From: Faecousia sp.
GTDB taxonomy: Bacteria > Bacillota > Clostridia > Oscillospirales > Oscillospiraceae
Direction: 5' to 3'
Assembly: GCA_034104845.1 (NCBI GenBank)
Contig: JAXECZ010000062.1
Coordinates: 1,303 to 65,302 of the forward strand
DNA: 64,000 bases
Part shown: positions 2,996 to 32,639 of the stretch, one piece after another
Layout of the letters: every line of letters begins with the position of its first letter
How positions within the stretch are numbered: the first letter of the stretch is position 1
Position numbers and translations under genes: made by a program
Notes under the pieces: model-generated
The model's database searches: none
Told to the model about the DNA's origin: nothing
The model's input: the letters and a program-made list of their open reading frames with translations, nothing else

Positions 2996-3022
2996 GTTGC
3001 GTCCTCCTCCGAACAACCTTTA

Positions 3023-5623
3023 TCAAAAGAAATTGAACTCATCCACCGCAAACGCAATATCAATCTGGAATTCCTCACGCTGCGGAGCCTGAAGGCCGCT
3101 TTCATCCGCGATGACCAGATAATAGCTGTCGCGATTGCTGTATTTCTGGGAGCGCAGATTGAAACTGCAGCGGAAGGTCCTGTCCTGACCGTTTCGGCTT
3201 GTTTTGTCTGCGATGATCTTGCTTGTATCACTGATCTGCTTTCCATTGGAATCAGTAAAGTAGACCAGATAAGTGGCTGCCTCCCGATTGCCGCCCACAG
3301 CCTCTGTCTGATAGAAGTTCAGCGAGAAAATCATGTTGCTGATCTTCCGGTTGGCAGACAGCAGGTTCACCACTACCGGCTTCGTGTCGATTTTATCCCT
3401 GTTGCGCTGGTATGCTTTTGTGGACGAACGAAGATGCTGGTATTGGATCACCGGCACAACCATTTCCTGTAGACTGGCTCCGCCATGAACAAAATTAAGG
3501 CCGCCGCCGTTCATCTTGATCCGAATGTTCTCTCTTGGCGCGTACGCCTCATAGTCCGCAGCCCCATCAAGAAATTTCACCGGCATCAGATAATCCGGGC
3601 TTGTGCCTGCCTGGGTGATGGCATAGCGCCTGCCATATTCCACGGTATGCTTCGCGAAACCGGACTTGTCCACCTTGTCATCTTCCTTCAGGGGGCTGTA
3701 GGTGTACAGGAAGCCGTGATCGGCAGTCATGTAAACTCTGGTGCCGCCAAACTCATTGACGATAATGCGGACCAGATTCTTGATCTCTTCAATCGCCTCA
3801 TCACAGGCCGGGAACACAGCGCTGTCTGAGGTGTGGCTGGCTTCATCGATTTTATCGTGATAGATATACACAATGTCCATGCCCTTGACCAATGCCTGCC
3901 GGTCAGAGCGTTTCATCTTGACGATGTTCTTATACTGAAGGGCCACACTGGCCCCGTGTGCATCCTTCAAAACCTTGTCCCGGTTTGGCATTTCGGTGGG
4001 CTTGCCGTCCGCAAAAACGGCAAGACCGCCAGCAACTTTCGGCTGTACGCTTAAGGTTTTATGAGGCAGCAAAGCCGCCATACCAAATTTGGTAATGGTG
4101 GGGAAAATACCCTCACAGCTGCTCAGCTCCACCTTGCCCTGCATTTCGCGCTGAAGCTGTTCAGACAGGGAGGCAGCAACCTCATAGCGGAGCGCGTCGG
4201 AAATAATAACATAAACCTTGTTGTCGTTTCCCGCGATTCTGCCGCGATAGAATGCCGTCTGCTGCGGCACTTCCAGGATGTGTCCGTACGCCGCAAGCTG
4301 CTCAGCACAGATATCCGACCAGTTCTGTCCCAGGGAACCGAGGAACCAGTGCGTGTACAGGCCCTCTACCTTTTCCGTTACATGCTTAAACAGGTCGTCC
4401 AGCAGTGGGTTGGAAATCCGTAACGAACGTTGGAAACAAAGGTGGTACTGCCGGTAATAGCTGTCCATCTTATAATAATCGCTGGTATATTCCTTCCACA
4501 CCTTGTGCGGCTCCACCGTATGAAAACCGGCAGAGTGCTCCAGGAAGAACGCCTGCATGTTGGCAACCTGAAGAATTCCTTCATAGTAACAGGCTGTATC
4601 CGCATACCAGGCAAGTGTCCGGCGCTTTTCGACTGCCTTTTGTATGGCGTCTACATTGATGATGTGGTCGCTGATTTCCGTCATCAGCATAGTCAAGATG
4701 CATTCATTGATACAGGGGAAGCACTCCGTATCCACCAAATCCTCTGCCGCCAGCCGGCAGAACCGGTCGGGAAGCCTTGCTTCTTCCTCTACGTACCGGG
4801 CTACCTCGTAGAGCTGCCCGCAATCCTCGCTGTGAAGCCAGTCGGATACCAGATCATAACAATACGCCTGATGAGGCATAGAAAGGAAGGCATCCAGCCC
4901 TGCCAGATTGTCCTGGTGTATGGTTCTGGTGGATGCAGTCAACAAAAGATGAATCGCCAACCGTCCGAGGTTCGATTCCTCACCTTCGTTGTAGCCGGTT
5001 GCCCGTGCCACCATGGCCCAGAACGCATTCTGTGCGCCGTAGGTTACAAAGCTCTGGTAAACGCTGTTCTCCTCTATATCCAATCCGGAGCGAATGACCG
5101 CACGGATGATGCTGCCCAGCTGGGTATCGGAAATGCCGCAAAGCGCCGCCATGACAGCAAGATGCATCTGGGAAGCCGTGCTGATGTTGATGTTCAGCCT
5201 GGCCACTGCGTCACGCCGCGCCTTGGCATTGAAGAACTTCCGGTAATGCTTCACCTGCTTGCGGATAATTTGAGTAGACGGCAGGCCCATCTCATCCATC
5301 CAGATGGAATTCAGATCAGCCCGGAACTCCTCGCTGTACAGCTGCACATTGATAAGCCAGTTGTCGTCATCGCGCTGAAACGAACGGGGATCGTAAACAA
5401 GGAAGTTGTCATGGGTTCTTTCCTCGCAGAGCAGCTTCTTTACCGCAAAGGTGTTGTTCCCGGTCAGGACAATCACCTCGGCATGATTCAACTCCAGCTC
5501 GGATAGCTTGTCTTCAAACTCCCGGTCCTCATCGCGCCAGAAGATAATCCGGCGCTGGTAAAATTCTGGCAGCGGCGCCGCAAAACGGCGATTCAATTCC
5601 TGGATGATTTTATCGGTTTCCAT
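3023..5623 (-). CDS. pglZ: BREX alkaline-phosphatase-superfamily protein PglZ (866 aa)
   Basis: Track ORF 3023..5731. The internal METDKIIQELNRRFAAPLPEFYQRRIIFWRDEDREFEDKL is the typical PglZ N-terminus, giving a start at 5623. PglZ-domain core: KVYVIISDALRYEV ... MTADHGFLY. It lies between pglX and brxL. Confidence 0.9.
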   Translation of the reverse strand: METDKIIQELNRRFAAPLPEFYQRRIIFWRDEDREFEDKLSELELNHAEVIVLTGNNTFAVKKLLCEERTHDNFLVYDPRSFQRDDDNWLINVQLYSEEFRADLNSIWMDEMGLPSTQIIRKQVKHYRKFFNAKARRDAVARLNINISTASQMHLAVMAALCGISDTQLGSIIRAVIRSGLDIEENSVYQSFVTYGAQNAFWAMVARATGYNEGEESNLGRLAIHLLLTASTRTIHQDNLAGLDAFLSMPHQAYCYDLVSDWLHSEDCGQLYEVARYVEEEARLPDRFCRLAAEDLVDTECFPCINECILTMLMTEISDHIINVDAIQKAVEKRRTLAWYADTACYYEGILQVANMQAFFLEHSAGFHTVEPHKVWKEYTSDYYKMDSYYRQYHLCFQRSLRISNPLLDDLFKHVTEKVEGLYTHWFLGSLGQNWSDICAEQLAAYGHILEVPQQTAFYRGRIAGNDNKVYVIISDALRYEVAASLSEQLQREMQGKVELSSCEGIFPTITKFGMAALLPHKTLSVQPKVAGGLAVFADGKPTEMPNRDKVLKDAHGASVALQYKNIVKMKRSDRQALVKGMDIVYIYHDKIDEASHTSDSAVFPACDEAIEEIKNLVRIIVNEFGGTRVYMTADHGFLYTYSPLKEDDKVDKSGFAKHTVEYGRRYAITQAGTSPDYLMPVKFLDGAADYEAYAPRENIRIKMNGGGLNFVHGGASLQEMVVPVIQYQHLRSSTKAYQRNRDKIDTKPVVVNLLSANRKISNMIFSLNFYQTEAVGGNREAATYLVYFTDSNGKQISDTSKIIADKTSRNGQDRTFRCSFNLRSQKYSNRDSYYLVIADESGLQAPQREEFQIDIAFAVDEFNFF

Positions 5624-5891
5624 CGGTATTTCCCTCTTCCCCGGCAATTTCAACGCTGTTCCTGCCCTGCTGGGAGGTACGCTTCCTCGTCTGATATTCC
5701 AAATACAGTTCTTCGGCAAGATATTCGTCACTCATGCAGTGCAGATCGGACACGCCATCCCGAAGGAGTGGATAAACCTGCGAACCATAGAAGAAATCCA
5801 ATGCAGCGTCCAGGGAAATGCCTGCCTTTTGCGCAAAGCATTCCATCACACGGGCATATTTCTTTTGGAGCAAAATCGGGTTTGCATTCAT
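5610..5891 (-). CDS. Small helical protein, DUF3791-like (93 aa), third gene of the cassette nested in BREX
   Basis: ORF MNANPILLQKKYARVMECFAQKAGISLDAALDFFYGSQVYPLLRDGVSDLHCMSDEYLAEEL... It overlaps the upstream ORF by 4 nt (5888-5891) and the probable pglZ start by 14 nt. Confidence 0.6.
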   Translation of the reverse strand: MNANPILLQKKYARVMECFAQKAGISLDAALDFFYGSQVYPLLRDGVSDLHCMSDEYLAEELYLEYQTRKRTSQQGRNSVEIAGEEGNTDGNR

Positions 5892-6358
5892 ACCTGTTCA
5901 CTTCCTTCAAAATGCAGCTGTGCCAATGCCTTTTCCGTACGGAAACAAATTTGCAGATTTGGTTTTTCATACCGCAGACGGCTGATCGCTTCCGCTTTGT
6001 CAATCAGTCCATCAAAGAACAGTTCCACGGTATTGAACACCTTATCATTTGCCACGCCGCCGATTACGAGATCATAGTCTGTACAATCCTTTCCGCTTCG
6101 GCAGTTCAAAATAAAATCCAGCCACTGCTCGGAATAGGTATCAAATTTCAGCGTTTTCAGCCCAGCCTCCTGTGCCTCGTCGAAGGAATAGCGGGAAATA
6201 ATTCCATCTTTTCCCCTGCGCTTGAACTTGCCGCACCACTTTGCAGCCTGCTCATAAAGCGGGGTGGTATAAAATCCAAGGCCAAAATCCACATTGGGTC
6301 TGGAATGCTTCAAATCGGGATGGGGAATTTCCAGAAAAGAACCGTGATAAACGATCAT
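5888..6358 (-). CDS. DUF3990-family protein (156 aa), possible ADP-ribosyltransferase-like fold
   Basis: The N-terminus MIVYHGSFLEIPHPDLKHSRPNVDFGLGFYTTPLYEQAAKW matches my recollection of the DUF3990 signature (YHGS ... DFGxGFY). It has 4-nt overlaps with both flanking small ORFs. Confidence 0.7.
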   Translation of the reverse strand: MIVYHGSFLEIPHPDLKHSRPNVDFGLGFYTTPLYEQAAKWCGKFKRRGKDGIISRYSFDEAQEAGLKTLKFDTYSEQWLDFILNCRSGKDCTDYDLVIGGVANDKVFNTVELFFDGLIDKAEAISRLRYEKPNLQICFRTEKALAQLHFEGSEQV

Positions 6359-6591
6359 ACTTCCACACCCCTTTCCTTCATCACATCGACAAGGTCATTC
6401 ACAATGTATTCCTTGCTCTGGGTATGCAAAATCTCATATTCCGGCACAATGTATTCGTTCAGGATACGGCTCTTTTGGGTAAAGGCTTGATAGACCTGTT
6501 CCGCACCCACCCCCAGTCTGGCGGCAACATTTTCGATGCAGAATACGGCAAATTCCAATTCCCTGGAATTTTTGATGGTTCCTTCCAGCAT
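6355..6591 (-). CDS. DUF3791-family small protein (78 aa from ATG 6591; the track ORF extends to 6630)
   Basis: MLEGTIKNSRELEFAVFCIENVAARLGVGAEQVYQAFTQKSRILNEYIVPEYEILHTQSKEYIVNDLVDVMKERGVEV. The ELEF.VFCIEN..A...G and HTQSKEYIV patterns are typical of DUF3791. A GAGGAGG lies at 6602-6609. The longer version would overlap the pglX 3' end by 23 nt. Confidence 0.65.
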   Translation of the reverse strand: MLEGTIKNSRELEFAVFCIENVAARLGVGAEQVYQAFTQKSRILNEYIVPEYEILHTQSKEYIVNDLVDVMKERGVEV

Positions 6592-6607
6592 ACTGTTCCA
6601 CGCCTCC

Positions 6608-9600
6608 TCACTTGATTTTTGCCAAAACATCCTTGAAAATTTCGTAGTTGTGCTTCACGCCGTCGTCCAGGTCGATGGAAATCATCTGGTCAGCCAGATG
6701 GTGAATCTTTTCTTCGTAGACATGGACCTCGGCGGCCTGCTCCTGTAGTTTCTTCAGCTGCTTGTTAAGCTTCACCCGTTCGCTGGTGGAAGCGGTAGCA
6801 CTGCGGTTTTCCAGATCAGCAATAGCAGTACGGTAGCGGGACTGCTGTTCATGCACATAGTCCGTGCGGATCCGGGCAATGGTGTCTTCTCTGTAGCGGT
6901 GCATATAGATCAGGCACTTGAAGCCGTTTTTCTTACCGCTGTCAAACTGCCAGTAGATGGGACGCTTCTGGTAGATTTTGCAGTGGTCACTATAGAAGTC
7001 GTTCAGGAAGTAGCTGCGGATGACCTCTTTCGGCCGACCCTTGCCGCCAAGGGCATCGGCAATGAAGCGGAGGTTCGATTCCAGACTCTGCTTTCCATAG
7101 ACGGTTTCGATGAATTTGATGAAGCGGCCAACGATGTCGTCCTCGAAGTATTCGTCATCGCAGATGGGGATAATATTATCTGTATCCGGGCTGTAGGTGC
7201 AGTCCAGCCACTGTCCATCCACTTGGATTTGATACCCCTTGTTCACCGCAATTCGGACGCCGCCAAAGGTGATGGTATCCCCGTTTTCCGCCAGTGCATT
7301 CCGCCGATAGGTATCCTCCCACTCGCCGCCAGCGTAGACCAAGCCGGAGCGGTTCAGGGAGTACCGGCCAAACATACAGCCCACGGCGTAGGAAATCAGG
7401 CTCTTGATATCCCGCTGGAGGTCTGCTTTGCGGACGGTCACATCCCTGTCCTCCACCTCCGGGGTCAGCTCGTTTTGCAGGCCGTAGATCTCGATGAAGA
7501 TGCGGTTCAGTTCTTCCTCGTTGGCTTTCAGCTTCTGGAAACGGGTTTCACACTCGTTTTCCCAGCACATATAGCATTCAGCCAGGTCGATGCTGTCAAT
7601 GTCATCAAAAAGCAGGCGGTTCTTAGGAATCACGGAAATCAGAGGGTGGCGCTGGAAATCCCAAGAGGTTTCAAAGGAGTCCCAATCTATTCTTGACAAT
7701 TTAATATTTTCATCACACATATTGTCAATTTCCTGTTGCGGATTATCAAGAAGTGGTAATTTTTCTATATCTCCACTAACTATACTCATTCCGGGCGATA
7801 TCACCTTGACAAAATATTGGCAAACTTTGCTATTCATAAAGGAAAGAATATAGTTCATATCATCCTGAGCCGGAAAGCCCTTTAAGCCTACAGAGCTAAA
7901 CACAAAGCCTACTGGCGAATAGCGAACAGACAATTCCGAAGCAATTTTCGACCATGTTAGCCCCTCACGGAAATAGTATTGTCTTGATGGCAAGCGATTT
8001 CCCATTTCAAGCAACCTATTATAACTATTAGTATCAAAACGAATTACTCGATCATTATTTCCATACCACTTCCTATATGTACCACCTTTGTCTATGGGAA
8101 AATAAGTTAGACAGGATGCATGGGCCGACTCGGTTGAAGTATAGTTAAAGCCAAGCTCAGTATAAGACGGTTCAAACCAATATCGAACAAACATTTCATC
8201 ATCACCTGTGGATGTTCCCTGCTTTGGCATTAGTTTTTCTCTAAGTGCGCTTCCTCTCCTAAAATCACAAATTGCAATGTCTGAAATGTAGTAAGCAAAG
8301 GGCTCACCTGGAATGTCTCTAAATTTGCCGACATCCCGAACATTTCTTGTTAACGGGTCAAAGAAAGCACTCTCTTTAGCATCCTCACCAGTGAAGCTCG
8401 TTAAATTTATGAACGAAGTATTATAGTTTGCAATATAATTACTGTTCATGTAGCAGAACGCCGTTGTTTGAACAACTTCCCCGTTAATCTCATCGAACGC
8501 ACGTGTGCCTAAATGGTTCATACAAATAAGAAGTTTTTCATAGAGTTTTTCACGAATCTTTTCAAAGCGGGCTTGAAACATCCATGTGGATTGTGTAATC
8601 ATGGAAACATATCTTCCTGAAAACACAAAATTTCTTTCAATAAAGGCAGCATACAGGTCTGCCTTGCTATCTTCATAATTATCTTTGATGTATTCTAGCA
8701 ACGTATTTCCCATATTGGGACTTCCAATGTAAGGAGGATTCGTCACCACCACATCATACTTCTGCGCCAGCATAGCGGCAATCTCAACCAGACGCCACAG
8801 CTTTTCCTTGGTTTCCCCCAAATTGCCTGCATCAAAATCCAGCTGTCCAGAGTAGTCCACCGTACCGACAAAGCGATACAGCAGTTCCCAGTCGTAATCC
8901 TTGACAATGAGGATGGAGCCATATTCTTTTGCGTCCTGCATGGCATCCAGCAAATCCGTCATCTGATCCAGTGCCATATTCCGCTCGATATCGCTCATGC
9001 TCCAACCGAAATACTTGAGGGAACCGCGGCTGATGGTGTTGCTCTCGCAGATGGCGTACACATAGGGCTGGGGGACATCAGGATTGCCGTCCTCGTCTTT
9101 CCGGGTCAGAAAACGCCGGTCATACTGCCGGGCCTTCATCATCACAGCGAAGTAAGAAAGTTGCGCTGCCCGGTCATCAATGTCCAGACCATAAAGGTTG
9201 TGCGCCACAATACTGGCTACCGCTTCCTGGGTGGTATAGCCGTAGCTCTGGTAGATTTGCATCAGCACATCGAACATGTAGGCAAGGATATGACCAGAAC
9301 CACAGCAGGGGTCAATGCACTTAATCTGTTCCGGTGTCAAAGCTGCACATTCCTTACGGATTGCATCCATCTGTGCCTGTACTTCTGGTTCCTGAGGTGC
9401 ATCAAAAAGGTAGTATTTCCAGCGAGAGATCATGAGTTCATTCAAATCTCCCGGGCGTTCATCATATTCATCTCTAGCGCTGCCAGCGTTGTGTTCAACC
9501 CAAAGACGGCCCAAGCTGTTCTCCACCATATAGCGCACGATCCAGTCCGGAGTGAACAACTGAGTGGCGGCAGGAATGTTCTCCTTGGTGATCTTCACAT

Positions 9601-10273
9601 TCTTCTTTAGAGCGGCGAAAACTTCATCCTTTTTCTCACTGTTATAGTACTGATACAGCCAGCCGATGATCTGTACCTGATCTGTCCAGTCTTTCTCTGG
9701 AATCAGTTCGATCATCTGCTGAATGACGCTGCCTTTCCGGAGCAGATTGTCCGGGAACAGAAGCTCCGTATAATCCGCGATTCTTTGGAACATTCCTGGC
9801 AGGATTCCGCTCAGTGCGTTACACTGGGTAATGAGCAGCAATTTATACAGTTCCTCTTTTTTATCGGCATTCTTGAGCTGATAGACCTTCTCCTTGTCCA
9901 GCCCCTCCAACTCCAGGTCGATGGCCTCAGTCAAGATTTTGGGGTTAAATTCACCCGCATCATCGGTAAACACCCGCACGTGGGTAGGCAGATAGCGGTT
10001 GACCTCCATAAAGCGCAGGGCAGCAAAGCGATTGAACCAGGTATAGGCCACCTCTTCCATGACCTCCCGATAGCCCTTCTGCTGGATCTGGGCAATCAAC
10101 GCCTGACGCTGTTGTTTCTCGGTGGGCGTCAAAACCCTGCCCCGAACACTGTCCGCCGCTGGATCTCCAAAGCCTTCCTCGCTGATGTCATACAGCGCCG
10201 CCCGCTGGGACACCCGGGAGATCAACTCCCGCCGCGCCCAGACTGCGTATTTTTTGATCGCATTTTTATCCAT
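6608..10273 (-). CDS. pglX: BREX N6-adenine DNA methyltransferase PglX (1221 aa)
   Basis: The N-terminus MDKNAIKKYAVWARRELISRV is typical of PglX. SAM-binding motif I is IDPCCGSGHIL and catalytic motif IV is VVVTNPPYIG. Size is ~1200 aa and it sits between brxC and pglZ. Confidence 0.9.
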   Translation of the reverse strand: MDKNAIKKYAVWARRELISRVSQRAALYDISEEGFGDPAADSVRGRVLTPTEKQQRQALIAQIQQKGYREVMEEVAYTWFNRFAALRFMEVNRYLPTHVRVFTDDAGEFNPKILTEAIDLELEGLDKEKVYQLKNADKKEELYKLLLITQCNALSGILPGMFQRIADYTELLFPDNLLRKGSVIQQMIELIPEKDWTDQVQIIGWLYQYYNSEKKDEVFAALKKNVKITKENIPAATQLFTPDWIVRYMVENSLGRLWVEHNAGSARDEYDERPGDLNELMISRWKYYLFDAPQEPEVQAQMDAIRKECAALTPEQIKCIDPCCGSGHILAYMFDVLMQIYQSYGYTTQEAVASIVAHNLYGLDIDDRAAQLSYFAVMMKARQYDRRFLTRKDEDGNPDVPQPYVYAICESNTISRGSLKYFGWSMSDIERNMALDQMTDLLDAMQDAKEYGSILIVKDYDWELLYRFVGTVDYSGQLDFDAGNLGETKEKLWRLVEIAAMLAQKYDVVVTNPPYIGSPNMGNTLLEYIKDNYEDSKADLYAAFIERNFVFSGRYVSMITQSTWMFQARFEKIREKLYEKLLICMNHLGTRAFDEINGEVVQTTAFCYMNSNYIANYNTSFINLTSFTGEDAKESAFFDPLTRNVRDVGKFRDIPGEPFAYYISDIAICDFRRGSALREKLMPKQGTSTGDDEMFVRYWFEPSYTELGFNYTSTESAHASCLTYFPIDKGGTYRKWYGNNDRVIRFDTNSYNRLLEMGNRLPSRQYYFREGLTWSKIASELSVRYSPVGFVFSSVGLKGFPAQDDMNYILSFMNSKVCQYFVKVISPGMSIVSGDIEKLPLLDNPQQEIDNMCDENIKLSRIDWDSFETSWDFQRHPLISVIPKNRLLFDDIDSIDLAECYMCWENECETRFQKLKANEEELNRIFIEIYGLQNELTPEVEDRDVTVRKADLQRDIKSLISYAVGCMFGRYSLNRSGLVYAGGEWEDTYRRNALAENGDTITFGGVRIAVNKGYQIQVDGQWLDCTYSPDTDNIIPICDDEYFEDDIVGRFIKFIETVYGKQSLESNLRFIADALGGKGRPKEVIRSYFLNDFYSDHCKIYQKRPIYWQFDSGKKNGFKCLIYMHRYREDTIARIRTDYVHEQQSRYRTAIADLENRSATASTSERVKLNKQLKKLQEQAAEVHVYEEKIHHLADQMISIDLDDGVKHNYEIFKDVLAKIK

Positions 10274-10287
10274 AATATATGTACCTT

Positions 10288-11097
10288 TTATCCGTTATTC
10301 TGCTTTGCGGCAAGGCGATCCCGGTAGTATTGAAGGACAAAAAGTTTAACACCTGCCATCTGCTCGCGTCGCTCTGCCTCAATACAGCGTCTTATTTTTT
10401 CGTCGAGAAAATCAATAGTAAGCGTCCCCGCTTCCTGACGCTCTAAGCATAAGCTTTCAGTATCTTTGAAAAGATCTCTACGTTTCTTTACCAGTTCTGT
10501 TGTCGTATCTTGCGTACATATATGATTTTCGTCCAGCTTACCGTTCAGAAACAGGACTGCATCCAAATCATGCTGCAATATCTGCTGTGACCAAGTCTCA
10601 GACTCCCGAATACTGATGACTCCATCACTATCATAAGTGATTAGTTTCATCATTTCCTCGTTTCTTGGGTCAATAACCATGCTATCGTTATCTCCCTTTT
10701 TTGCATCACAGCAGATAACCCGCTCTTCTCCTTCACCAAGTGCAACATCACTGCCACCCTTACATGTTCCAAGGAAATTGTAATAATCTATTGCCTTTTC
10801 TTTGTCCCTGCTCAATGGAGAAAAATGTTCGATAGTCATTTTATCTCCATCATGTTCAATAGGAAGCATACAATATGCACACAAACCGTGCTGTTCCTTC
10901 AACAACGCGTCCCGAATCGTTTTTTTCGGAAGTTCGTCAAAGAAATTCTTGCGAAGTTTATTAGCCCATCGATGTCTTTCATGCTCAGGAAGAGCGCCCA
11001 AGTTGCAGGGAATACTGGCCCATGACGGTCTGGCTTTTAGTTGTGTGATTTTCTGCTGAACCTCTTCTGGGCAAGGTCCTTTCTCTATATATAGCAT
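10288..11097 (-). CDS. HNH-type nuclease-like protein (TIGR02646 / Septu PtuB-like), 269 aa
   Basis: The segment HGLCAYCMLPIEHDGDKMTIEHFSPLSRDKEKAIDYYNFLGTCKGG carries CxxC ... IEH.xP ... N, as in HNH proteins that partner with ABC-type ATPases. It starts 15 nt after the ATPase gene and ends 14 nt before pglX. The DNA is AT-rich. Confidence 0.65.
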   Translation of the reverse strand: MLYIEKGPCPEEVQQKITQLKARPSWASIPCNLGALPEHERHRWANKLRKNFFDELPKKTIRDALLKEQHGLCAYCMLPIEHDGDKMTIEHFSPLSRDKEKAIDYYNFLGTCKGGSDVALGEGEERVICCDAKKGDNDSMVIDPRNEEMMKLITYDSDGVISIRESETWSQQILQHDLDAVLFLNGKLDENHICTQDTTTELVKKRRDLFKDTESLCLERQEAGTLTIDFLDEKIRRCIEAERREQMAGVKLFVLQYYRDRLAAKQNNG

Positions 11098-11112
11098 AAA
11101 CCTCTCCCACTC

Positions 11113-12363
11113 TTAAAAGTCCAACTTACGCTTTGCGCTTTTTACTTCTGCATTATCGGGGCCATAAAGATCAAGCATTTTTTCGTACATATCCTGTGCC
11201 ACGGTCATATTGTTATGATAATACGCATTTTCAAAGTTCTTCTTTAAAAGCTGTAACTGTTTGGGAATCCCAGAACTTCCTTGCCGAAGTTCAACAACAT
11301 CATTTATAGAGTAAGCATAGGCTTGAGAGGGGTAATCCACTTCGTGGTATTCATTAATATGAATTATTTTTGCTGTTTTACAGGAGGAAATAACAATCGG
11401 CGCATGGGTTGCAATGATAAATTGAATATTAGGGAATGTTTCTGCCAGAGCGCCAACTGCATTCCACTGCCATTTAGGATGCAAATGCATGTCGATTTCA
11501 TCAAGCAGTACAATGCCTGATGCATCCGAAGAATCCTTCATAGTAGGATTCAACTGCGCCAGACGAAATGCAAGGTCCATTGCGATCCAAAGAACAGATT
11601 GATATCCTGCACTTAGGAACGTAACGGGGAGCTCGTCATCCCCCTCTCTATAAACGATATCACGAAAAACAGAAGAATATCGAACAGAAGGATTCGTTGC
11701 AAGCTCATTCATGCTTCTCATTATTTTAGAAATGGTATTATTGAACAAATCTATTTCTTGAATTTCTGTATTCTGAAAATGCGCTTCATAAGACATTTTC
11801 ATTATCCATTCCATAATGCTGTTTTTGCTAGGAATGCCATCTAGGCTGCCAATGTAACCGCAGCGTCTGTCATTTAACTCGTTCTTTTGTTTTTTTCCAA
11901 AGTCCGCTCTCTTAGAAGAGATAACACGCGAAATGCTCATATAAGAAAGAATAGGAAGGACTGCATCTACATCGTTCGCAATATTCTGTAAATACTTCTT
12001 TGCCTCACTACCTGTTGTGAGTGACTTTCCATATCCCGAAGGATCATCTCTTCTGCGGCTACAGTAAATCATTTCTCCATCAACGTCAATTGCTAAATTA
12101 ACTCTAGGCCCAGCATATGAAATCACATTAGAGGCATTTGTTACTCTCAAAACTTTTTGGCGAAAATCATCCTTCTGAAATCCATTTGCAGGAACGCCAG
12201 GAATGCCACTTAATAGGCCGTTTAGTCCGACTGCCAAAGCTTCCAAAATAGAGGTCTTACCTGCGCCATTATCACCGATAATCAAGTTTATACCAGGATT
12301 AAATTCCAAATCGATGTTCTCAATTCCTCGGAAATCCTGAATATTTGCATCACTTAGAAACAA
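11113..12363 (-). CDS. ABC/SMC-type AAA ATPase (AAA_15/AAA_21; Septu PtuA-like), 416 aa, TTG start
   Basis: Walker A is IIGDNGAGKTSILEAL, the signature-like motif is LSAGYQS, Walker B/D-loop is IVLLDEIDMHLHPKWQ and the H-loop is IIATHAP. The in-frame codon upstream of the TTG is a stop. An AAGGAAAGG RBS lies 9 nt upstream. One 60-nt line (11701-11760) counted by hand is 27% GC. Confidence 0.7.
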   Translation of the reverse strand: MFLSDANIQDFRGIENIDLEFNPGINLIIGDNGAGKTSILEALAVGLNGLLSGIPGVPANGFQKDDFRQKVLRVTNASNVISYAGPRVNLAIDVDGEMIYCSRRRDDPSGYGKSLTTGSEAKKYLQNIANDVDAVLPILSYMSISRVISSKRADFGKKQKNELNDRRCGYIGSLDGIPSKNSIMEWIMKMSYEAHFQNTEIQEIDLFNNTISKIMRSMNELATNPSVRYSSVFRDIVYREGDDELPVTFLSAGYQSVLWIAMDLAFRLAQLNPTMKDSSDASGIVLLDEIDMHLHPKWQWNAVGALAETFPNIQFIIATHAPIVISSCKTAKIIHINEYHEVDYPSQAYAYSINDVVELRQGSSGIPKQLQLLKKNFENAYYHNNMTVAQDMYEKMLDLYGPDNAEVKSAKRKLDF

Positions 12364-12379
12364 ATTGCATCACCTTTCC

Positions 12380-12398
12380 TTGAATACTCGATATTCAA
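12380..12398 (-). promoter_or_regulatory. Perfect 7-5-7 inverted repeat TTGAATA-N5-TATTCAA next to the ATPase RBS
   Basis: Read directly: ttgaatactcgatattcaa, in the 114-nt brxC-ATPase spacer. Confidence 0.3.
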
Positions 12399-12477
12399 AA
12401 GTTTAACCACGTATCATGAAAAGAATCACTATTTTATCTCAAAAACTCAGTCATCTTTTTTACGGAATGAGCTTCCC

Positions 12478-15400
12478 TTATTTCAGCTGAATCCCATCAC
12501 AGCCCTTCATCAGCTGTTTTAGCTGCTGGCGCATTTTCTCAACATAGGCATCAATGTCCGCTTCGCTTTCCAGGCGTTTCGTCGGGAAGATGACCTGCCG
12601 ATTGTACGACTTGATAATCTTCTTCGGCGCGGGAGGTGTTGTGGTTCCGCCACTGGTATAGGTTACAGGCGGCTTCGGTTCCGGAGGTACTAACATCACC
12701 TCAATGCTGCCGCAGGCGGAATCCTTGTACTGTAGCATCGGCGGAACGAGACCATCCAGCAGAGCAAGGCTCTTCAGTTCCTTGATGGTGTCCCGCTTCT
12801 GTGTATAATACTTATCTGCCTTGTCGACAATATCTCTCGTATTGGGGTTTCCGTTTGCTGCCTGGTGGATGGCACCCATACACTGGGTTACAATCTCCAT
12901 CACTTCCTCACGCTTTGCCGCCAGCAAACGATTGTGTCCTTCCTGGACAGTTGCCATCAGGCCGTTCAACTCAGGTATGTGCTTGTAGCGAAAGCCACCG
13001 GACACCGATGTAATCAGGCGAATCTGGTTCAGCGCATGGTTTGCTTCCGGCTCATGAGAGAGGTAATCCAGCTCATTGCGCAGATCCAGCTCCATCTGGG
13101 CAGCCGCGTCAAAAATCTGCACCTGATTCTTGAAGAACCCCTCCACCTGCGCCAGACTCTCCTTGCTGTCAAAGAGGTCATCTTCCCGCTTCAGGAGACG
13201 GTCGATCAGGGCAATGTTATCCTTCTGCTGAGAAAGAATATCCGCCATCAGCTGAATCGCTTGCTGTACCTTATCCCGGTCCGGGTACTTTCTGCCGGAC
13301 TGATAGCGCTGGTCTAGGGCTTCATAATGCGCTTTCTGATCCGTGAACTTGCGGACAATAAAGGCGACCATGCCGTCCTCATTGTCCGGCACATCCATGA
13401 TGTCGAAATATTCACGCAGAAGTTCCTTCGCCGCTTTCATTTTCTGAGCAGAGACCATGTGCCGCACGGAGATACTGGTCTTGCCGATCTCGCTCTTTTT
13501 CCGCAGCATATCCGGCAGCTTCGGGTTATCCGGCTGGATGGTCGTGCCGCCATATTTGATGGTGACTTTCTGCTGCACGATCAGCAGAGCAGCCACAGCA
13601 GCCACATCGATTTCCTTCCAGCCATAGGGGATCCCCTGATAGCGGCTCTGAACGTCAGCCATGGAAGTGGGCAGCTTGATCCTGTCCTGAACAATCAGGT
13701 ATTCCTCCATCTTCGCCGCTGCATCCCGGTTCGGTTCCGTGCCAGGGATCATTTGTTCCGCGCCGGAGAGAATATTCAAAATGTCCCCATCCGTTTCCGC
13801 GTTTTTCGTAATCAGATTCAGTTCACTGTACACATGAACGACAAGATATTCCAGCGCCTGCTCGATCCTGGACTTGGCATCGCCGCTGCGAATCTCCAAA
13901 TGCTCACCATCCACATAGAACGCCGCTGCCTCGATGGCTTTTTTCAGCTGTTCCATGGCATCCTGCTCATAGCGGCTGGCTTCCTCCTGCTTGTCACGAA
14001 TGATATCCTCCACGGACTTCGGCAGCTGGGCTATGCGCTGCTTCGCATATTTGCGGATCTTCATGGCGCTTTCCAAATTCTCGTAATACAGAGAATTCGG
14101 AAGAACGACAATTGCCTGACCTCTGGACTCCGTCATGAGGCGAAGCTCGCTTTTTTCGACAGCGTCCGTTGCCACAGTCAGGAAGCGCAGCTTCATGCCG
14201 CCGGTGGAAGCGCCTGTGGTTACGCCGTCCACCATCTTGTCAAAGTCAAAATCGTATTTTCCATAGCGGAACTTTTTGGTGGTGAAGATATCTCCGTAAA
14301 TCATCTGCGCGATACGATCCACAATGGCCGCAGTATCTACGCTGGTGTTCCGTATTTCCCGCTGGATGTCCTGCTCCTCGTCGGTCAGGAAATTATAGAT
14401 ATCCCCGGACCTGCCAATATAGTTCTGGCTGAGAAGACGGTTCAGGGATTCCCTCGTTTTCTCACGGAGAGTAATTTTGTCAGTACGGATATCGTCCGCC
14501 ATCAGGATGACAATATTGTCAATGTTGGCAGGAATATCGTCCACATAGCGGATCAGATACAGGAGCTTCAGCACATCCACATCCTGGGCTTCGATACCAT
14601 CGCCGCTGTCTGCCGCTTTCTGGCAGCGCTCGATCACCCGGCGGATAGAACCATCCAGGAAGGTATGCACGGTATCATAGAAGCGGAAGAACGGCACAAG
14701 GGCATATTCATCCTCGGTCTGGATCTTCTGCGCTGCTTCCTGGAAGCCGGAAAGCATGGAACGCTCGCCGCCGGACAGGTGCTTTCCGGAATTTCCGTGT
14801 TTCCGAATCTCGGCAAAGACCTTCTGCATGACAATAAACTGATAGGGCACGAAGGGGAAGTTAACTGCAAATTCATTTGGGCCGGTGTATCCCTTGATAT
14901 CCAGAATGGAATCGGTGAAGCTGAACAGATTCCGAAGAACAGAATCATTCCGGTCGTACAGCTTCTCCAGCGCGGTTTCCGCCCCCGGCTTTTTCTTCAG
15001 AATACGCTTCTGGATCACTTCATCCACAGAGGAGGACGACAGGCTCAGCCGAGTTTTAAATCTTGCCTGAATACGGGAGAACTCATCGGCGCGAACCTTA
15101 ATGATCTCGTCAATGGCTTCCTGCCCGGTGCACACCACCCACACTTTGCCGCCGCATTCGCTGCCAATCTTCTCAGTCAGAGATTGAAGATTCAGCAGCA
15201 TATCGGTATCCGTGCCCACATACTGGCCAACTTCGTCGATCATGAACAGCAGGCGGAAGTTATCCGGCTTGCTGCCTACATAGGACTTGATGTCCTCCAC
15301 CAAACGGGCAATGGAGAACTCAACAGCCGTCTTGTCGGTAAACCAGCGCTTTGCATCCTCCTCGCTCATATCCAGGACTTCCATCAACGTTGGAATAATG

Positions 15401-16014
15401 AACTTTCCGTTGAACGCAAAGGCCTTACGCTGGTCGATCCACGGCTTGCCCTTTTTCTCCTCAAACACCCGGCGGAATTCTTCGGTTTTTCCCAGCTGGT
15501 CAATATACTGCTCCAACATGGCAACCTTCAAGTTTTCGCCATAGAAGCCCAGGTGATTGTAGAACATCTTGGCAAAAACCCGGAGCACCGCCGTTTTGTC
15601 CTTGTTGATGGAACCTTCAATATCGATATTGAACAGAATGGTTTCCGTTTTGCCCCGGGTTGCGCGGTCAATCAGCAGGAAGGTTGCCGGATCCTCCTCA
15701 AACTTCTTGCGAAACAACTCTACCGTGGTCTCGCCGTCAATCTTCCTGTTCTCCAAAATATAGGACAGCATTTTCAGGAAGTGAGATTTACCGCTTCCAA
15801 AGAACCCTGAAATCCAAACGCCAATATCGGCAGTTGGCTTTTCAAAGGCATCACTGTAATAATCAAAAAAAGAAATGAAATGCTTTTTCAGTTCGCGGGT
15901 AATGACATATTCCCGCACTTCCTGCTTGATGACATCAGTGGCATCCTGGTCAACCTTGATCACGCCGTTGATTGGACGGTTGATATCTTCGGCAAACATG
16001 TCCCGAATCAACAT
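12478..16014 (-). CDS. brxC: BREX P-loop ATPase BrxC (1178 aa)
   Basis: P-loop ISGFFGSGKSHFLKML, Walker B LFMIDEVGQYV, ~1200 aa. It starts 13 nt after brxB. Confidence 0.9.
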   Translation of the reverse strand: MLIRDMFAEDINRPINGVIKVDQDATDVIKQEVREYVITRELKKHFISFFDYYSDAFEKPTADIGVWISGFFGSGKSHFLKMLSYILENRKIDGETTVELFRKKFEEDPATFLLIDRATRGKTETILFNIDIEGSINKDKTAVLRVFAKMFYNHLGFYGENLKVAMLEQYIDQLGKTEEFRRVFEEKKGKPWIDQRKAFAFNGKFIIPTLMEVLDMSEEDAKRWFTDKTAVEFSIARLVEDIKSYVGSKPDNFRLLFMIDEVGQYVGTDTDMLLNLQSLTEKIGSECGGKVWVVCTGQEAIDEIIKVRADEFSRIQARFKTRLSLSSSSVDEVIQKRILKKKPGAETALEKLYDRNDSVLRNLFSFTDSILDIKGYTGPNEFAVNFPFVPYQFIVMQKVFAEIRKHGNSGKHLSGGERSMLSGFQEAAQKIQTEDEYALVPFFRFYDTVHTFLDGSIRRVIERCQKAADSGDGIEAQDVDVLKLLYLIRYVDDIPANIDNIVILMADDIRTDKITLREKTRESLNRLLSQNYIGRSGDIYNFLTDEEQDIQREIRNTSVDTAAIVDRIAQMIYGDIFTTKKFRYGKYDFDFDKMVDGVTTGASTGGMKLRFLTVATDAVEKSELRLMTESRGQAIVVLPNSLYYENLESAMKIRKYAKQRIAQLPKSVEDIIRDKQEEASRYEQDAMEQLKKAIEAAAFYVDGEHLEIRSGDAKSRIEQALEYLVVHVYSELNLITKNAETDGDILNILSGAEQMIPGTEPNRDAAAKMEEYLIVQDRIKLPTSMADVQSRYQGIPYGWKEIDVAAVAALLIVQQKVTIKYGGTTIQPDNPKLPDMLRKKSEIGKTSISVRHMVSAQKMKAAKELLREYFDIMDVPDNEDGMVAFIVRKFTDQKAHYEALDQRYQSGRKYPDRDKVQQAIQLMADILSQQKDNIALIDRLLKREDDLFDSKESLAQVEGFFKNQVQIFDAAAQMELDLRNELDYLSHEPEANHALNQIRLITSVSGGFRYKHIPELNGLMATVQEGHNRLLAAKREEVMEIVTQCMGAIHQAANGNPNTRDIVDKADKYYTQKRDTIKELKSLALLDGLVPPMLQYKDSACGSIEVMLVPPEPKPPVTYTSGGTTTPPAPKKIIKSYNRQVIFPTKRLESEADIDAYVEKMRQQLKQLMKGCDGIQLK

Positions 16015-16027
16015 GGTCAGTTCCTCC

Positions 16028-16585
16028 TTAAATCACATTGAACGCTCTATAATAGTCGTTCGGCTGTAGTCTGTTGAACAATTTCAGATGGTAACGGTCA
16101 AACTCTCCGGGATACATGACCAAGATCGGCACATCGGAAAAGTACGGCTGCAACGCTTCCAACAGGGTGTGTACCCGCATGAAGGGAAACGCATCTCCTA
16201 CACCGGTCAGCAGCAGCACATCTCCCAGCTTATGAGGAGAATACTGAATTTTTTCAATAAATTCATCTGTGCCAATCGCCGAGTGGAGTTGCTCCAGAAG
16301 GAATTCGCTCCCATCGGATTCTTCCATCTCCGGGATAGCATCCGTGATGTCCAGCTCATCACAGATGGAGAGAAAAATTTTATATAAATTGCATTCGATC
16401 AGTCTGCAAGGAACCCGCTGATCTGTCGTGATCTGGTCCACAAAATGCTGAACGGCCATCTCATCAGCAGGGTCGTAACAGAAAATCCGGATGTTGACTT
16501 CATTGCTTAAGCCCTTACCCTCCAGGAAGTCTGGCTCCTGAATCAACTGGCGAAGTTCATCCAGTCGTTCGTTTATGGATTTCAT
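16028..16585 (-). CDS. brxB: BREX protein BrxB (DUF1788), 185 aa
   Basis: Size and position between brxA and brxC. The sequence (..FCYDPADE..LLLTGVGDAFPFMRVHTLLEALQ..) is consistent with DUF1788. Confidence 0.85.
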   Translation of the reverse strand: MKSINERLDELRQLIQEPDFLEGKGLSNEVNIRIFCYDPADEMAVQHFVDQITTDQRVPCRLIECNLYKIFLSICDELDITDAIPEMEESDGSEFLLEQLHSAIGTDEFIEKIQYSPHKLGDVLLLTGVGDAFPFMRVHTLLEALQPYFSDVPILVMYPGEFDRYHLKLFNRLQPNDYYRAFNVI

Positions 16586-16598
16586 TTACCGCACCTCC

Positions 16599-17228
16599 TC
16601 AAGAGAAATAGTTAAATGCCGGGAATGCGATTTCGTCATGATGCTCCCGGATCGCTGTCTCAAGGACGGGATTCAGCCAAACCGGATTCAGATGATTGGC
16701 ATTGGTATCGTCCAAATACTCGTTTTCTACCAATATACGGGCAAGTACCTGTTTGATTTTTGCGATGGTATTTTCACTCCATGTGGCAACCCCATCGTCC
16801 TGCTCCTGCAAACGAAGAAAAAAAGTGTTCAAGTCAATTTTCCCAAATGAGTTGTCCCGCATTCGGTATTTCTCACCAATCACCGTAATCATGAAATCCC
16901 ATACCAACCGATACTGCTTCATCATGGCATACAGACAGATCTGCTTTGCCACGTCAGACGGCTGCCCAGCCAGAGCCGCCACGAGGGTAGTGTCATTCAT
17001 CGTCCGCAGCCGATTGATGCAGGTCTGTGCCATTTTTCGTACAGATTTTTCTGTAGGATATTGAAACAAGTTTTCTGATACAATTTTATTGACAACCGCT
17101 TTGTCGCCCAGACCATCACACATCAGTTTGGCCGTTGTACGGGTTTCATAGAATAAATACTGCTCTCTAGTCAGCACCGCACTGTACGGACTGGCCGCAC
17201 GGCGTGCTGCAATTGATTTTTCTGCCAT
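16599..17228 (-). CDS. brxA: BREX protein BrxA (DUF1819), 209 aa
   Basis: First BREX gene, ~200 aa and helical. A GGAGGT RBS lies upstream of the ATG, and it ends 13 nt before brxB. Confidence 0.85.
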   Translation of the reverse strand: MAEKSIAARRAASPYSAVLTREQYLFYETRTTAKLMCDGLGDKAVVNKIVSENLFQYPTEKSVRKMAQTCINRLRTMNDTTLVAALAGQPSDVAKQICLYAMMKQYRLVWDFMITVIGEKYRMRDNSFGKIDLNTFFLRLQEQDDGVATWSENTIAKIKQVLARILVENEYLDDTNANHLNPVWLNPVLETAIREHHDEIAFPAFNYFS

Positions 17229-17297
17229 TGGATATTACCTCCATGTGCGGAAAGGAGTCGTTACGGGGCGCCTGTCATCCATTTCCGATTTCTAACT

Positions 17298-17507
17298 TCA
17301 CATTTTGTCCGGAAGGATTTCAAGGATATCATCCACCGAACAATTCAGCGCCAGACAAATTCGAGCCACTACCTCCATGGAGACAATCTCGTCTCTTCCC
17401 ATTTTACTCAATGTACTGGCGCTGACATTTGCTAACTTGCACAGCTCTTTTTTCTTCATTTTCTTGTCGATCAGAAGCTTAAATAATTTATTATATGAAA
17501 CCGCCAT
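17298..17507 (-). CDS. XRE/Cro-type HTH transcriptional regulator (69 aa)
   Basis: Track ORF 17298..17678. The internal start MAVSYNKLFKLLIDKKMKKKELCKLANVSASTLSKMGRDEIVSMEVVARICLALNCSVDDILE is preceded by AGGAGGAGAA (17511-17520). It shows the HTH_3-like pattern and lies 69 nt upstream of brxA. Confidence 0.75.
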   Translation of the reverse strand: MAVSYNKLFKLLIDKKMKKKELCKLANVSASTLSKMGRDEIVSMEVVARICLALNCSVDDILEILPDKM

Positions 17508-17560
17508 GCTTTCTCCTCCTTGCATAGGGATGCCGATTAGAATATCAATTCTTTCTTTAT

Positions 17561-17589
17561 AGCATAACACAAATACGGACGAATGTAAA
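17561..17589 (-). promoter_or_regulatory. Candidate sigma-A promoter for the HTH/BREX operon: TTTACA-N17-TATGCT
   Basis: On the minus strand, TTTACA (17584-17589), a 17-nt spacer and TATGCT (17561-17566), about 50 nt upstream of the HTH start. Confidence 0.4.
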
Positions 17590-17701
17590 TTATTAATAAC
17601 GAGTTCTCGCAAGTTTTTAAGTATTAGGAAATCCTCGACCAATTCCAAATAAAAGGATCCTCTTTTCAAATCTCCCACATTTTGCCGTCTTTTCAGCTCG
17701 C

Positions 17702-19901: not shown

Positions 19902-20690
19902 TTAGGATGTTTCGAGATAGCCAAAGCCGAATCGGTCATCGTATCCGGCGTCGCCCATATCCTGTGCCAATGCCTCGAGGTATTGGGAAACCCGTGAAGG
20001 CTCCACCCCGTTTTGGAGGGCAGCGGCAATCAGGCCGGAGATCCGGGCGGCGGCATAGGAGGAGCCTTTGTCATCACCGCAGTCGCCGCGGGCACAGAAA
20101 TCCACGGCTTCTCCGTAAAGATACCAGAGGCTGGTTTTCGGCTCTCCCAAATCATTCAGATCAACGCCCGCGATGCCAATCACCTCATCCCAGGCGGCGG
20201 GATAGGCGATGGTGCCGAGGCCGGTGCTCATGCTCAGGTTTCCGGCGCAGGCCACAAGGATCGCCCCTTGGTCATAAGCATGGAGTATGGCTTCCCGCAG
20301 CAGGTCGCTTTCCTCACTGAGCGTCCAGCTCATGTTGATGACATCGGCGTGATACGTGTCCACAGCCGCATACAGCGCTGCCACAATGGCCTCTTCGTTC
20401 AAACTGTCCTGTGCATCGAAGCACTTAAGCATCACCACATCCGCCTCCGGTGCGCCTTCGCGAATCAGGGAACAGATGTGAGTGCCATGGCCGATGGAAT
20501 CCGTCAAATCGTCAGAGACCCCCAGAAAGCTTTTTCCCTTGGAGTGATCGTCACTGCAGCCGGAATCCAGGATGCAGACCGTAACCGTCTTCTCAGCGCG
20601 GCAGGAGGTACACAAAAAGGCTGCGAAAAGGATCGGAATGGCCAAAAGAGCCGGAATTCTTCCGGAACGGGCGAAAAAGGCGCGTTTCAT
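19902..20690 (-). CDS. Minimal S8 (subtilisin-family) serine peptidase, probable lipoprotein (262 aa)
   Basis: Catalytic triad contexts VCILDSGC (Asp), IGHGTHICS (His) and GSSYAAARISG (Ser). The signal/lipobox-like segment is LLAIPILFAAFLCTSC. The start at 20690 is 23 nt after the giant ORF's stop. Confidence 0.85.
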   Translation of the reverse strand: MKRAFFARSGRIPALLAIPILFAAFLCTSCRAEKTVTVCILDSGCSDDHSKGKSFLGVSDDLTDSIGHGTHICSLIREGAPEADVVMLKCFDAQDSLNEEAIVAALYAAVDTYHADVINMSWTLSEESDLLREAILHAYDQGAILVACAGNLSMSTGLGTIAYPAAWDEVIGIAGVDLNDLGEPKTSLWYLYGEAVDFCARGDCGDDKGSSYAAARISGLIAAALQNGVEPSRVSQYLEALAQDMGDAGYDDRFGFGYLETS

Positions 20691-20713
20691 ATTGCTTCCG
20701 ATTCCCACATTCC

Positions 20714-32602: not shown

Positions 32603-32639
32603 TTTTTGTCCTCCTGCCTTCAATAGCCAGTTGATTTCG

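Follow-up and report, generated by a model that had tools for sequence, protein, structure and literature searches.

A probable type I Septu system carried as cargo between brxC and pglX in a type 1 BREX operon of Faecousia sp.

The genes described here lie in a 64,000-nt stretch of the Faecousia sp. contig JAXECZ010000062.1 (hereafter the window, to which coordinates refer unless another locus is named) and form part of an operon of the bacteriophage exclusion (BREX) system. Within this operon, the segment 10288-12477 holds a pair of genes that we call ptuA and ptuB, after the components of the defence system Septu (Table 1). The best PADLOC matches place brxA, brxB, brxC, pglX, pglZ and brxL in the operon, all present and in the order expected of type 1 BREX, and the position of the pair between brxC and pglX, as read in a first-pass annotation made from the letters of the DNA, is borne out by flanking genes that match the BrxC and PglX models at E = 0. 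The window BrxC is 99% identical to the BrxC of a Faecousia sp. metagenome-assembled genome (Oscillospiraceae), and a megablast search of E. coli genomes with 10000-12800 returned zero matches.

Table 1. Features of the BREX operon and of the nested Septu pair, with positions in the window
Feature	Positions	Strand	Basis or remark
Whole transcription-unit context	872-17678	(-)	HTH-brxA-brxB-brxC-[ptuA-ptuB]-pglX-[PDC-M13 A/B/C]-pglZ-brxL
XRE-type helix-turn-helix (HTH) gene	17298-17678	(-)	First gene of BREX operon
brxA	16599-17228	(-)	PADLOC BrxA, E 1.5e-65
brxB	16028-16585	(-)	PADLOC BrxB, E 2e-76
brxC, upstream neighbour of Septu pair	12478-16014	(-)	PADLOC BrxC PDLC02471, E = 0, full length
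brxC-ptuA spacer, 114 nt, upstream insert boundary	12364-12477	(-)	Weak promoter-like match, ribosome-binding site AGGAAAGG, no terminator
ptuA, 416-aa ABC/SMC-type ATPase, TTG start	11113-12363	(-)	PADLOC PtuA1, Pfam, PDB sequence matches
PtuA Walker A GDNGAGKTS, residues 30-38	12250-12276	(-)	Motif read
PtuA signature-like LSAGYQS, residues 250-256	11596-11616	(-)	Motif read
PtuA Walker B/D-loop VLLDEIDMHLHPKWQ, residues 285-299	11467-11511	(-)	Motif read
PtuA H-loop ATHAP, residues 318-322	11398-11412	(-)	Motif read
ptuA-ptuB spacer, 15 nt, GAGTGGGAGAGGTTT	11098-11112	(-)	
ptuB, 269-aa HNH (beta-beta-alpha-Me) nuclease with C-terminal three-helix domain	10288-11097	(-)	PADLOC, TIGR02646, predicted fold
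PtuB CAYC (CxxC), residues 73-76	10870-10881	(-)	Motif read
PtuB IEHF, with E90-H91, residues 89-92	10822-10833	(-)	Motif read
PtuB NFLGTC, N107..C112, residues 107-112	10762-10779	(-)	Motif read
PtuB CCDAKKG, with C129-C130-D131, residues 129-135	10693-10713	(-)	Motif read
ptuB-pglX spacer, 14 nt, AAGGTACATATATT, downstream insert boundary	10274-10287	(-)	
pglX, BREX methyltransferase downstream of Septu pair	6608-10273	(-)	PADLOC PglX PDLC02521, E = 0
PDC-M13A/B/C module	5610-6630	(-)	PADLOC candidate system, between pglX and pglZ
PDC-M13A (DUF3791)	6355-6630	(-)	PADLOC
PDC-M13B (DUF3990)	5888-6358	(-)	PADLOC
PDC-M13C, 93 aa, second DUF3791-like protein	5610-5891	(-)	PADLOC
pglZ	3023-5623, or to 5731 with longer start	(-)	PADLOC PglZ, E 7e-269
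brxL	872-3016	(-)	PADLOC BrxL, E = 0

The product of the first gene of the pair aligns over nearly its whole length with the PADLOC model PtuA1 (PDLC00298; E 3.9e-113; residues 1-415 on profile positions 1-415 of 423), and matches the Pfam families AAA_15, AAA_23, AAA_21 and SMC_N. Among PDB sequences it finds the solved PtuA chains 22bu, 22et, 9n69, 9vh1 and 8ee4 (E 2e-33 to 7e-25), which come from Septu (8EE4) and from the retrons Ec78 and Ec83. A Walker A motif, a signature-like motif, a Walker B/D-loop and an H-loop, the set characteristic of the Septu ATPase, are all in place. An in-frame TGA stands two codons before the TTG at 12363, making this TTG the first possible start; the ribosome-binding site AGGAAAGG lies ahead of it, and the N-termini of 10 PtuA homologues from other loci align at exactly the residue that it encodes. 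The first-pass annotation had quoted these four ATPase motifs in a 416-aa protein with a TTG start, and an HNH-like core (CAYC...NFLGTC) in a 269-aa protein downstream; both proteins were confirmed at the positions given in Table 1, as was the start.

PtuB matches the PADLOC model PtuB1 (PDLC00322; E 2e-31) and the NCBIfam family TIGR02646 (“retron system putative HNH endonuclease”), the latter with 61.6 bits against a cut-off of 52.15. Pfam returned zero matches for this protein, whose family was found instead via PADLOC, NCBIfam and a fold search. Because the only match among PDB sequences was a weak one, to a single TIGR02646 chain, we aligned 30 PtuB homologues, in all of which C73, A74, Y75, C76, E90, H91, P94, N107, C112, G114, C130 and D131 are invariant. 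The HNH motif is thus intact, and PtuB keeps the catalytic His and zinc-binding Cys of the TIGR02646-family HNH nuclease that defines Septu. An AlphaFold2 model built on 27 of the 30 aligned rows was obtained with a predicted local distance difference test (pLDDT) score of 94 and a predicted template modelling (pTM) score of 0.88. In a Foldseek search of the PDB with this model, the 11 best matches were all PtuB chains of Septu and retron I-A (probability 1.00, template modelling scores 0.47-0.68), with Cas9 HNH domains ranked after them; the 11 include chain 8eea_G of the E. coli Septu complex, the structures of which are PDB 8EE4/8EE7/8EEA (PMC12819146). The single-chain model ends in helices 202-222, 228-240 and 248-268, and the structural alignments cover whole PtuB chains; the three predicted C-terminal helices fit the C-terminal domain through which PtuB docks on PtuA in the published structures.

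As in type I Septu, ptuA is followed directly by a co-oriented ptuB, here with brxC and pglX as neighbours. No RVT-family (reverse transcriptase, RT) match was found among the BREX-region open reading frames (ORFs) scanned, and a search for noncoding RNA (ncRNA) with Rfam over the whole window gave only two tRNAs near 62 kb, with none in the BREX region or in the 114-nt spacer. Given the PADLOC, NCBIfam and PDB/fold matches, the invariant HNH residues, the absence of RT and Rfam matches from the region, and the lack of a retron-type N-terminal extension on PtuA, we predict that ptuA-ptuB is a standalone-type (type I) Septu with intact catalytic sites. Family membership is established by sequence for PtuA and by sequence together with predicted fold for PtuB, and the Septu two-gene architecture proposed at first pass is borne out by agreement among PADLOC PtuA/PtuB, TIGR02646 and Pfam AAA_15/AAA_21/AAA_23.

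The segment stands apart from its surroundings in composition. It has 40.4% GC, compared with 53.0 +/- 3.2% for non-overlapping 2190-bp intervals of the 64 kb, none of which is as AT-rich (the minimum, 44.2%, falls in mid-pglX), and the GC content at third codon positions is 0.35 in ptuA and 0.40 in ptuB vs 0.51-0.65 in the six core BREX genes. The first-pass annotation had called the segment compositionally foreign from hand counts, which were exact (26.7% for 11701-11760, 51.7% for 13021-13080); the first of these stretches is a local extreme within the segment, and the whole-window profile bears the claim out.

The same annotation had singled out the 114-nt spacer upstream of ptuA as the long one of the operon, and it is indeed the longest, the rest being 69, 13, 13, 15, 14 and 6 nt or overlaps when the ORF 5610-5891 is taken as PDC-M13C and the ATG at 5623 as the start of pglZ. 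This spacer holds a weak sigma-70-like match (TTGAGA-18-CATGAT, 12442-12413, 9/12). No terminator was found in it, its predicted RNA fold is no more stable than those of shuffles (z -0.84), and it has no similarity to the region upstream of the standalone ptuAB of locus L005, described below. The 15-nt spacer between ptuA and ptuB is consistent with translational coupling. Because the cassette has neither a terminator nor a strong promoter of its own, it is probably transcribed together with BREX.

A comparison of related operons places the pair in a wider setting. We mapped the window proteins onto the 80 best BrxC-bearing loci of a species-representative genome collection (L007-L086; L-numbers are our own labels), and could measure the brxC|pglX junction in 75 of them. 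In 39 loci it is bare, spanning 10-22 nt and bearing a GGAG ribosome-binding site; three loci have 57-194 nt there, and the remaining 33 have 475-4507 bp. The inserts share the orientation of the BREX genes, and all 34 scored gaps longer than 150 bp have a lower GC content than their own brxC. What they carry is varied: bSEFIR, an mREase_IV-like protein, DUF2130 and several families with neither a Pfam nor a PADLOC match, the latter including proteins of ~160 aa (10 loci), ~155 aa (4 loci) and ~205 aa (4 loci). The pglX|pglZ junction is occupied oftener still (37 of 46 measurable loci), with cargo that includes PDC-M14, PDC-S02, PDC-S25, PDC-S50 and Septu-like pairs. Septu-like genes are found at brxC|pglX in L042, L087 and L089 besides the lineage of the window itself, and at pglX|pglZ in L010, L032, L089 and, truncated, L071. 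L089 (3216-10138) thus has two Septu-like modules, of which the one at pglX|pglZ is intact, and the PtuB at brxC|pglX is a 56-aa remnant from which the HNH core is deleted.

The nearest PtuA outside the window's own strain is found outside BREX, in L005 (69% amino acid identity; 70% for PtuB), where a standalone ptuAB next to guaB has a terminator of its own and an extended -10 promoter close to consensus, and where similarity to the window DNA is limited to the two coding regions. Two more close PtuA relatives (63% and 49%) are standalone too. At L005 (8283-12458, near dnaA-gyrB) the complete guaB (IMPDH) lies on one side of ptuAB and a perfect 80-codon duplicate of the guaB 3' end on the other, the signature left by integration of an island at that 3' end. 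Identities to the window are incongruent between BrxC and PtuA, with values of 81% and 52% for L089 and of 74% and 64% for L087. In a small neighbour-joining tree of 11 PtuA sequences, the copies from brxC|pglX and from pglX|pglZ fall in separate clades; standalone copies are nested among those from brxC|pglX. At the protein level the pair is 99-100% identical in five other samples. Nucleotide comparison with L001-L004 and L007 gives 5-7 differences in 2061 nt for the Septu cassette and 31-35 in 3537 nt for brxC, so that the cargo has diverged between strains roughly three-fold less than the adjacent brxC.

The first-pass annotation had proposed that a complete small system was inserted secondarily into the BREX unit, and that related loci lacking it would define the scars. 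The relatives exist, as the 39 short junctions attest, and the scar could not be defined: a repeat search of 10150-12620 gave short chance repeats, none of them flanking the insert, and manual comparison of the junctions revealed no target duplication around the window Septu, unlike at L023. In that locus (11537-12663) the opening 12 bp of a bSEFIR cargo gene (ATGGACAAAAAT) are those of the first four pglX codons and occur again at the true pglX start, a flanking duplication that hints at how cassettes enter the junction. Viral contigs scanned for PtuA relatives yielded none, and so give no evidence of a phage vehicle. The secondary acquisition itself is supported by the empty junctions and other cargo in relatives, the low GC content, the standalone nearest homologue and the BrxC/PtuA incongruence, which together suggest that the pair arrived at a recurrent cargo site of this BREX lineage. 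Exchange of cassettes between the conserved brxC 3' and pglX 5' flanks would, we infer, be the likely route.

How the pair may act can be sketched from published work. Standalone Septu forms an inflammasome-like PtuAB oligomer in which the nuclease is restrained before infection, and Septu PtuAB nicks supercoiled DNA, an activity that ATP inhibits (PMC12819146). PtuAB defence depends on Walker A and B and on the HNH His and Asn, and PtuAB has been seen to slow growth at high multiplicity of infection and to cut phage yield (PMC13096335, in which the Septu work of Li et al. [2024, Nature Structural & Molecular Biology] is cited); in a further study, Septu function was lost in mutants of the same motifs. 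If the steps known from E. coli and Bacillus Septu and from retron I-A PtuAB (PMC12819146, PMC13096335) carry over, PtuA oligomers would hold PtuB by means of a PtuA C-terminal extension and the helical C-terminal domain of PtuB, keeping the HNH silent, until a phage cue freed the nuclease. Freed PtuB would then nick DNA and/or cut tRNA-Tyr in its variable loop, with growth arrest of the infected cell and a block of phage production as the outcome, and the ATPase and HNH sites would both be required. Since all required residues are present in the window pair, we would expect infection to trigger a nuclease response that does not depend on BREX methylation and gives the locus a second layer.

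Overall, the segment is very probably an intact type I Septu, carried as co-oriented cargo at brxC|pglX of a complete type 1 BREX operon in a Faecousia-like gut bacterium (Oscillospiraceae) and secondarily acquired. Several points weigh against this interpretation or narrow it. What is said of trigger, substrate (DNA or tRNA) and stoichiometry is extrapolated from proteins with no more than 14-18% identity to the window PtuB in structural alignments. No flanking repeats, att-like sites or inverted repeats mark the insertion, so that to speak of an “insertion” is to argue from the lack of the pair in related loci. Cargo at brxC|pglX is AT-rich in general, and the low GC content therefore neither marks a recent event nor allows the event to be dated. 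The survey consists of the 80 best BrxC matches, some of them near-duplicate loci, which makes its percentages rough. Finally, the weak promoter-like match in the 114-nt spacer leaves room for separate expression of the pair.

A different relationship between the two systems would be one in which Septu is functionally wired into BREX and serves as its guard or as a backup effector, set off by phage anti-BREX proteins as they disable BREX, or by signals from BREX itself such as PglZ nicks, as PARIS senses Ocr. The brxC|pglX junction, filled in roughly 44% of the loci measured, would then be a dedicated slot for promoter-less cassettes and the resident Septu a BREX-adapted lineage, firing as a BREX-dependent guard once BREX has been disabled by phage inhibitors or has marked invading DNA; if true, BREX and Septu would be a physically and functionally coupled two-layer system and not two neighbours. 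The embedding of the pair in the operon, with no terminator and a weak promoter-like site alone, would suit such wiring, as would the brxC|pglX location of three of the six nearest PtuA clusters examined. However, the nearest non-strain relative (69%) and the two other close relatives stand alone, far from any BREX, which argues that the module can work without BREX, and the very heterogeneous cargo of the junction is what would be expected of a permissive site, not of a specific partnership. The separate PtuA clades for brxC|pglX and pglX|pglZ copies also speak for the wiring, but they come from a neighbour-joining tree of 11 sequences. ABC-ATPase-centred modules have been proposed as a BREX backup layer (Nucleic Acids Research 2026, PMC12839542), and Went et al. 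(2024, PMC11341690) float the same idea for PARIS in Salmonella BREX, but no BREX-linked activity was seen for that embedded PARIS. The wiring is plausible, but we consider both it and the dedicated, BREX-dependent slot unlikely.

It is more improbable still that the pair is an inactive or decaying hitch-hiker that contributes nothing to its host. Degraded relatives do occur (the 56-aa PtuB of L089 at brxC|pglX, and in L071 a PtuA truncated to 359 aa with no PtuB), but in the window both ORFs align over their full length with the family profiles, the catalytic residues are all intact and invariant, the AlphaFold2 model of PtuB is confident, and protein conservation in the five other samples is nearly complete; the TTG start of ptuA, which might be taken for a sign of decay, is aligned with homologue N-termini and preceded by AGGAAAGG. 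That the type I Septu assignment is mistaken and the pair belongs to another ABC-ATPase and nuclease family (PARIS, Gabija/OLD, or a retron I-A effector minus its RT) has a negligible probability, because, although the N-terminal ATPase segment of PtuA weakly matches Rad50, RecF, OLD and AriA models and the NCBIfam retron Ec78 PtuA and PtuB models match the pair, yet under their cut-offs (204 vs 500 and 88 vs 150), the partner nuclease is an HNH and not the TOPRIM of PARIS and OLD-Gabija, the best full-length models for the pair are PADLOC Septu PtuA1 and PtuB1, AriA is absent from the 25 best PADLOC matches of the window PtuA and scores ~1e-29 against 1e-130 to 1e-146 for PtuA models with the related PtuAs of L042 and L010, the region lacks the RVT-family match (in the ORFs scanned) and Rfam match of a retron I-A, and the 416-aa window PtuA aligns to the 551-aa retron PtuA from residue ~70, without the retron-type N-terminal extension.

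The operon has a second nested cargo module, a complete PDC-M13, all three genes of which overlap their neighbours. DUF3990 is a member of the Pfam ADP-ribosyltransferase clan (PMC7955679) and has been found as an Rhs toxin tip (PMC4524185), for which reason PDC-M13 looks, by domain content, like a toxin with two small partner proteins. A DUF3791/DUF3990 pair with 76-85% amino acid identity is also present 3' of pglX in L036, L038, L053, L054, L062 and L065. A second long spacer, before pglZ, was considered and rejected: PDC-M13C fills the gap, and the pglZ start is most likely the ATG at 5623.

The locus has a second AT-rich patch at 7500-9000 (-), within pglX, with 41.6% GC vs 52-53% elsewhere in the gene; this probably corresponds to the variable target-recognition region. 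When strain L007, which is 99% identical, is aligned to the window, the match ends at 7760, 140 nt short of the end of the L007 contig. The sibling strain L001 (Logan SRR11670877), with 99% identical BREX and Septu genes, has a 7.8-kb element (L001:8182-16001) ~14 codons into pglX, just downstream of ptuB (window 10230-10240), and the empty site of this element is the state seen in the window. Its genes encode an endolysin-like protein (Phage_lysozyme2 and Amidase_2), a 557-aa generic RT, an XRE HTH protein and a large serine recombinase, whose ORF runs in frame into pglX, giving a called product of 1683 aa; integration at this point would disrupt the BREX methyltransferase. A reading of its RT as a known defence RT was dropped, the matches being weak generic RT/DRT ones alone. 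On the far side of the BREX operon, 19902-32623 (-) holds an ORF of 3969 aa (20714-32623, 55.6% GC) followed by a 268-aa subtilase (Peptidase_S8) ORF, and small DUF2200, DUF5655 and GDSL-lipase genes lie between these and the BREX locus.

Septu within BREX has been published before. Of the ~9000 genomes with co-localised pglZ and pglX surveyed by Went et al. (2024, PMC11341690), ~7000 had genes lying between the BREX components; their Supplementary Fig. 1 covers 1902 defence genes in the pglX-pglZ interval and gives “septu_type_I” as 0.53% of them. A “dyad” of an HNH nuclease and an OLD-type ABC ATPase embedded in BREX core loci has also been described, with non-TOPRIM nucleases paired to such ATPases in 594 taxa and read as backup effectors (Nucleic Acids Research 2026, PMC12839542). 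In both, as in the window, an ATPase and an HNH protein are encoded as a pair among the core genes of type 1 BREX, and the pair is taken for an auxiliary or backup effector; the interval surveyed by Went et al. was pglX|pglZ, whereas the pair described here sits at brxC|pglX. Since Septu in BREX is catalogued and Septu itself has been characterised structurally and functionally, this locus is a further instance, at brxC|pglX, and not a new kind. It is a natural example of defence within defence, in which one operon combines BREX with two nested modules (Septu and PDC-M13) and sibling loci show the slot empty, otherwise filled, or with decayed copies. It thus offers a convenient place to ask whether a nested system relies on the one that hosts it, serves as its backup or acts regardless of it, and how cassettes are exchanged at conserved gene junctions.

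Type I Septu (PtuA/PtuB), reportedly described by Doron in 2018, is one of the closest known systems. The window pair resembles it in the order ptuA-ptuB, the ABC-ATPase motifs, the TIGR02646 HNH nuclease, the C-terminal helical domain (predicted here) and the absence of an RT. It differs in sequence, with a PtuB 14-18% identical to solved PtuB chains and a PtuA that matches the PtuA of 8EE4 at E 7e-25, in the length of PtuA (416 aa vs 465), and in its setting, which is a clostridial host and the operon of another system, without a strong promoter of its own. Retrons of type I-A (Ec78/Eco7, Ec83) have homologous PtuA and PtuB proteins and provide the best PDB sequence and fold matches, but the BREX-region ORFs scanned gave no RT match and Rfam no ncRNA there, and the window PtuA is missing the N-terminal extension along with other elements of retron binding. 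PARIS (AriA/AriB) in the BREX of Salmonella D23580 is likewise a complete small system nested in or beside BREX that joins an ABC-type ATPase to a nuclease, the latter a TOPRIM and not an HNH as here. To our knowledge, no Ocr-type trigger is known for Septu. The remaining parallel is BrxU (GmrSD) in the pEFER BREX island, where, as at this locus, a complete small defence system lies within or next to the BREX genes.

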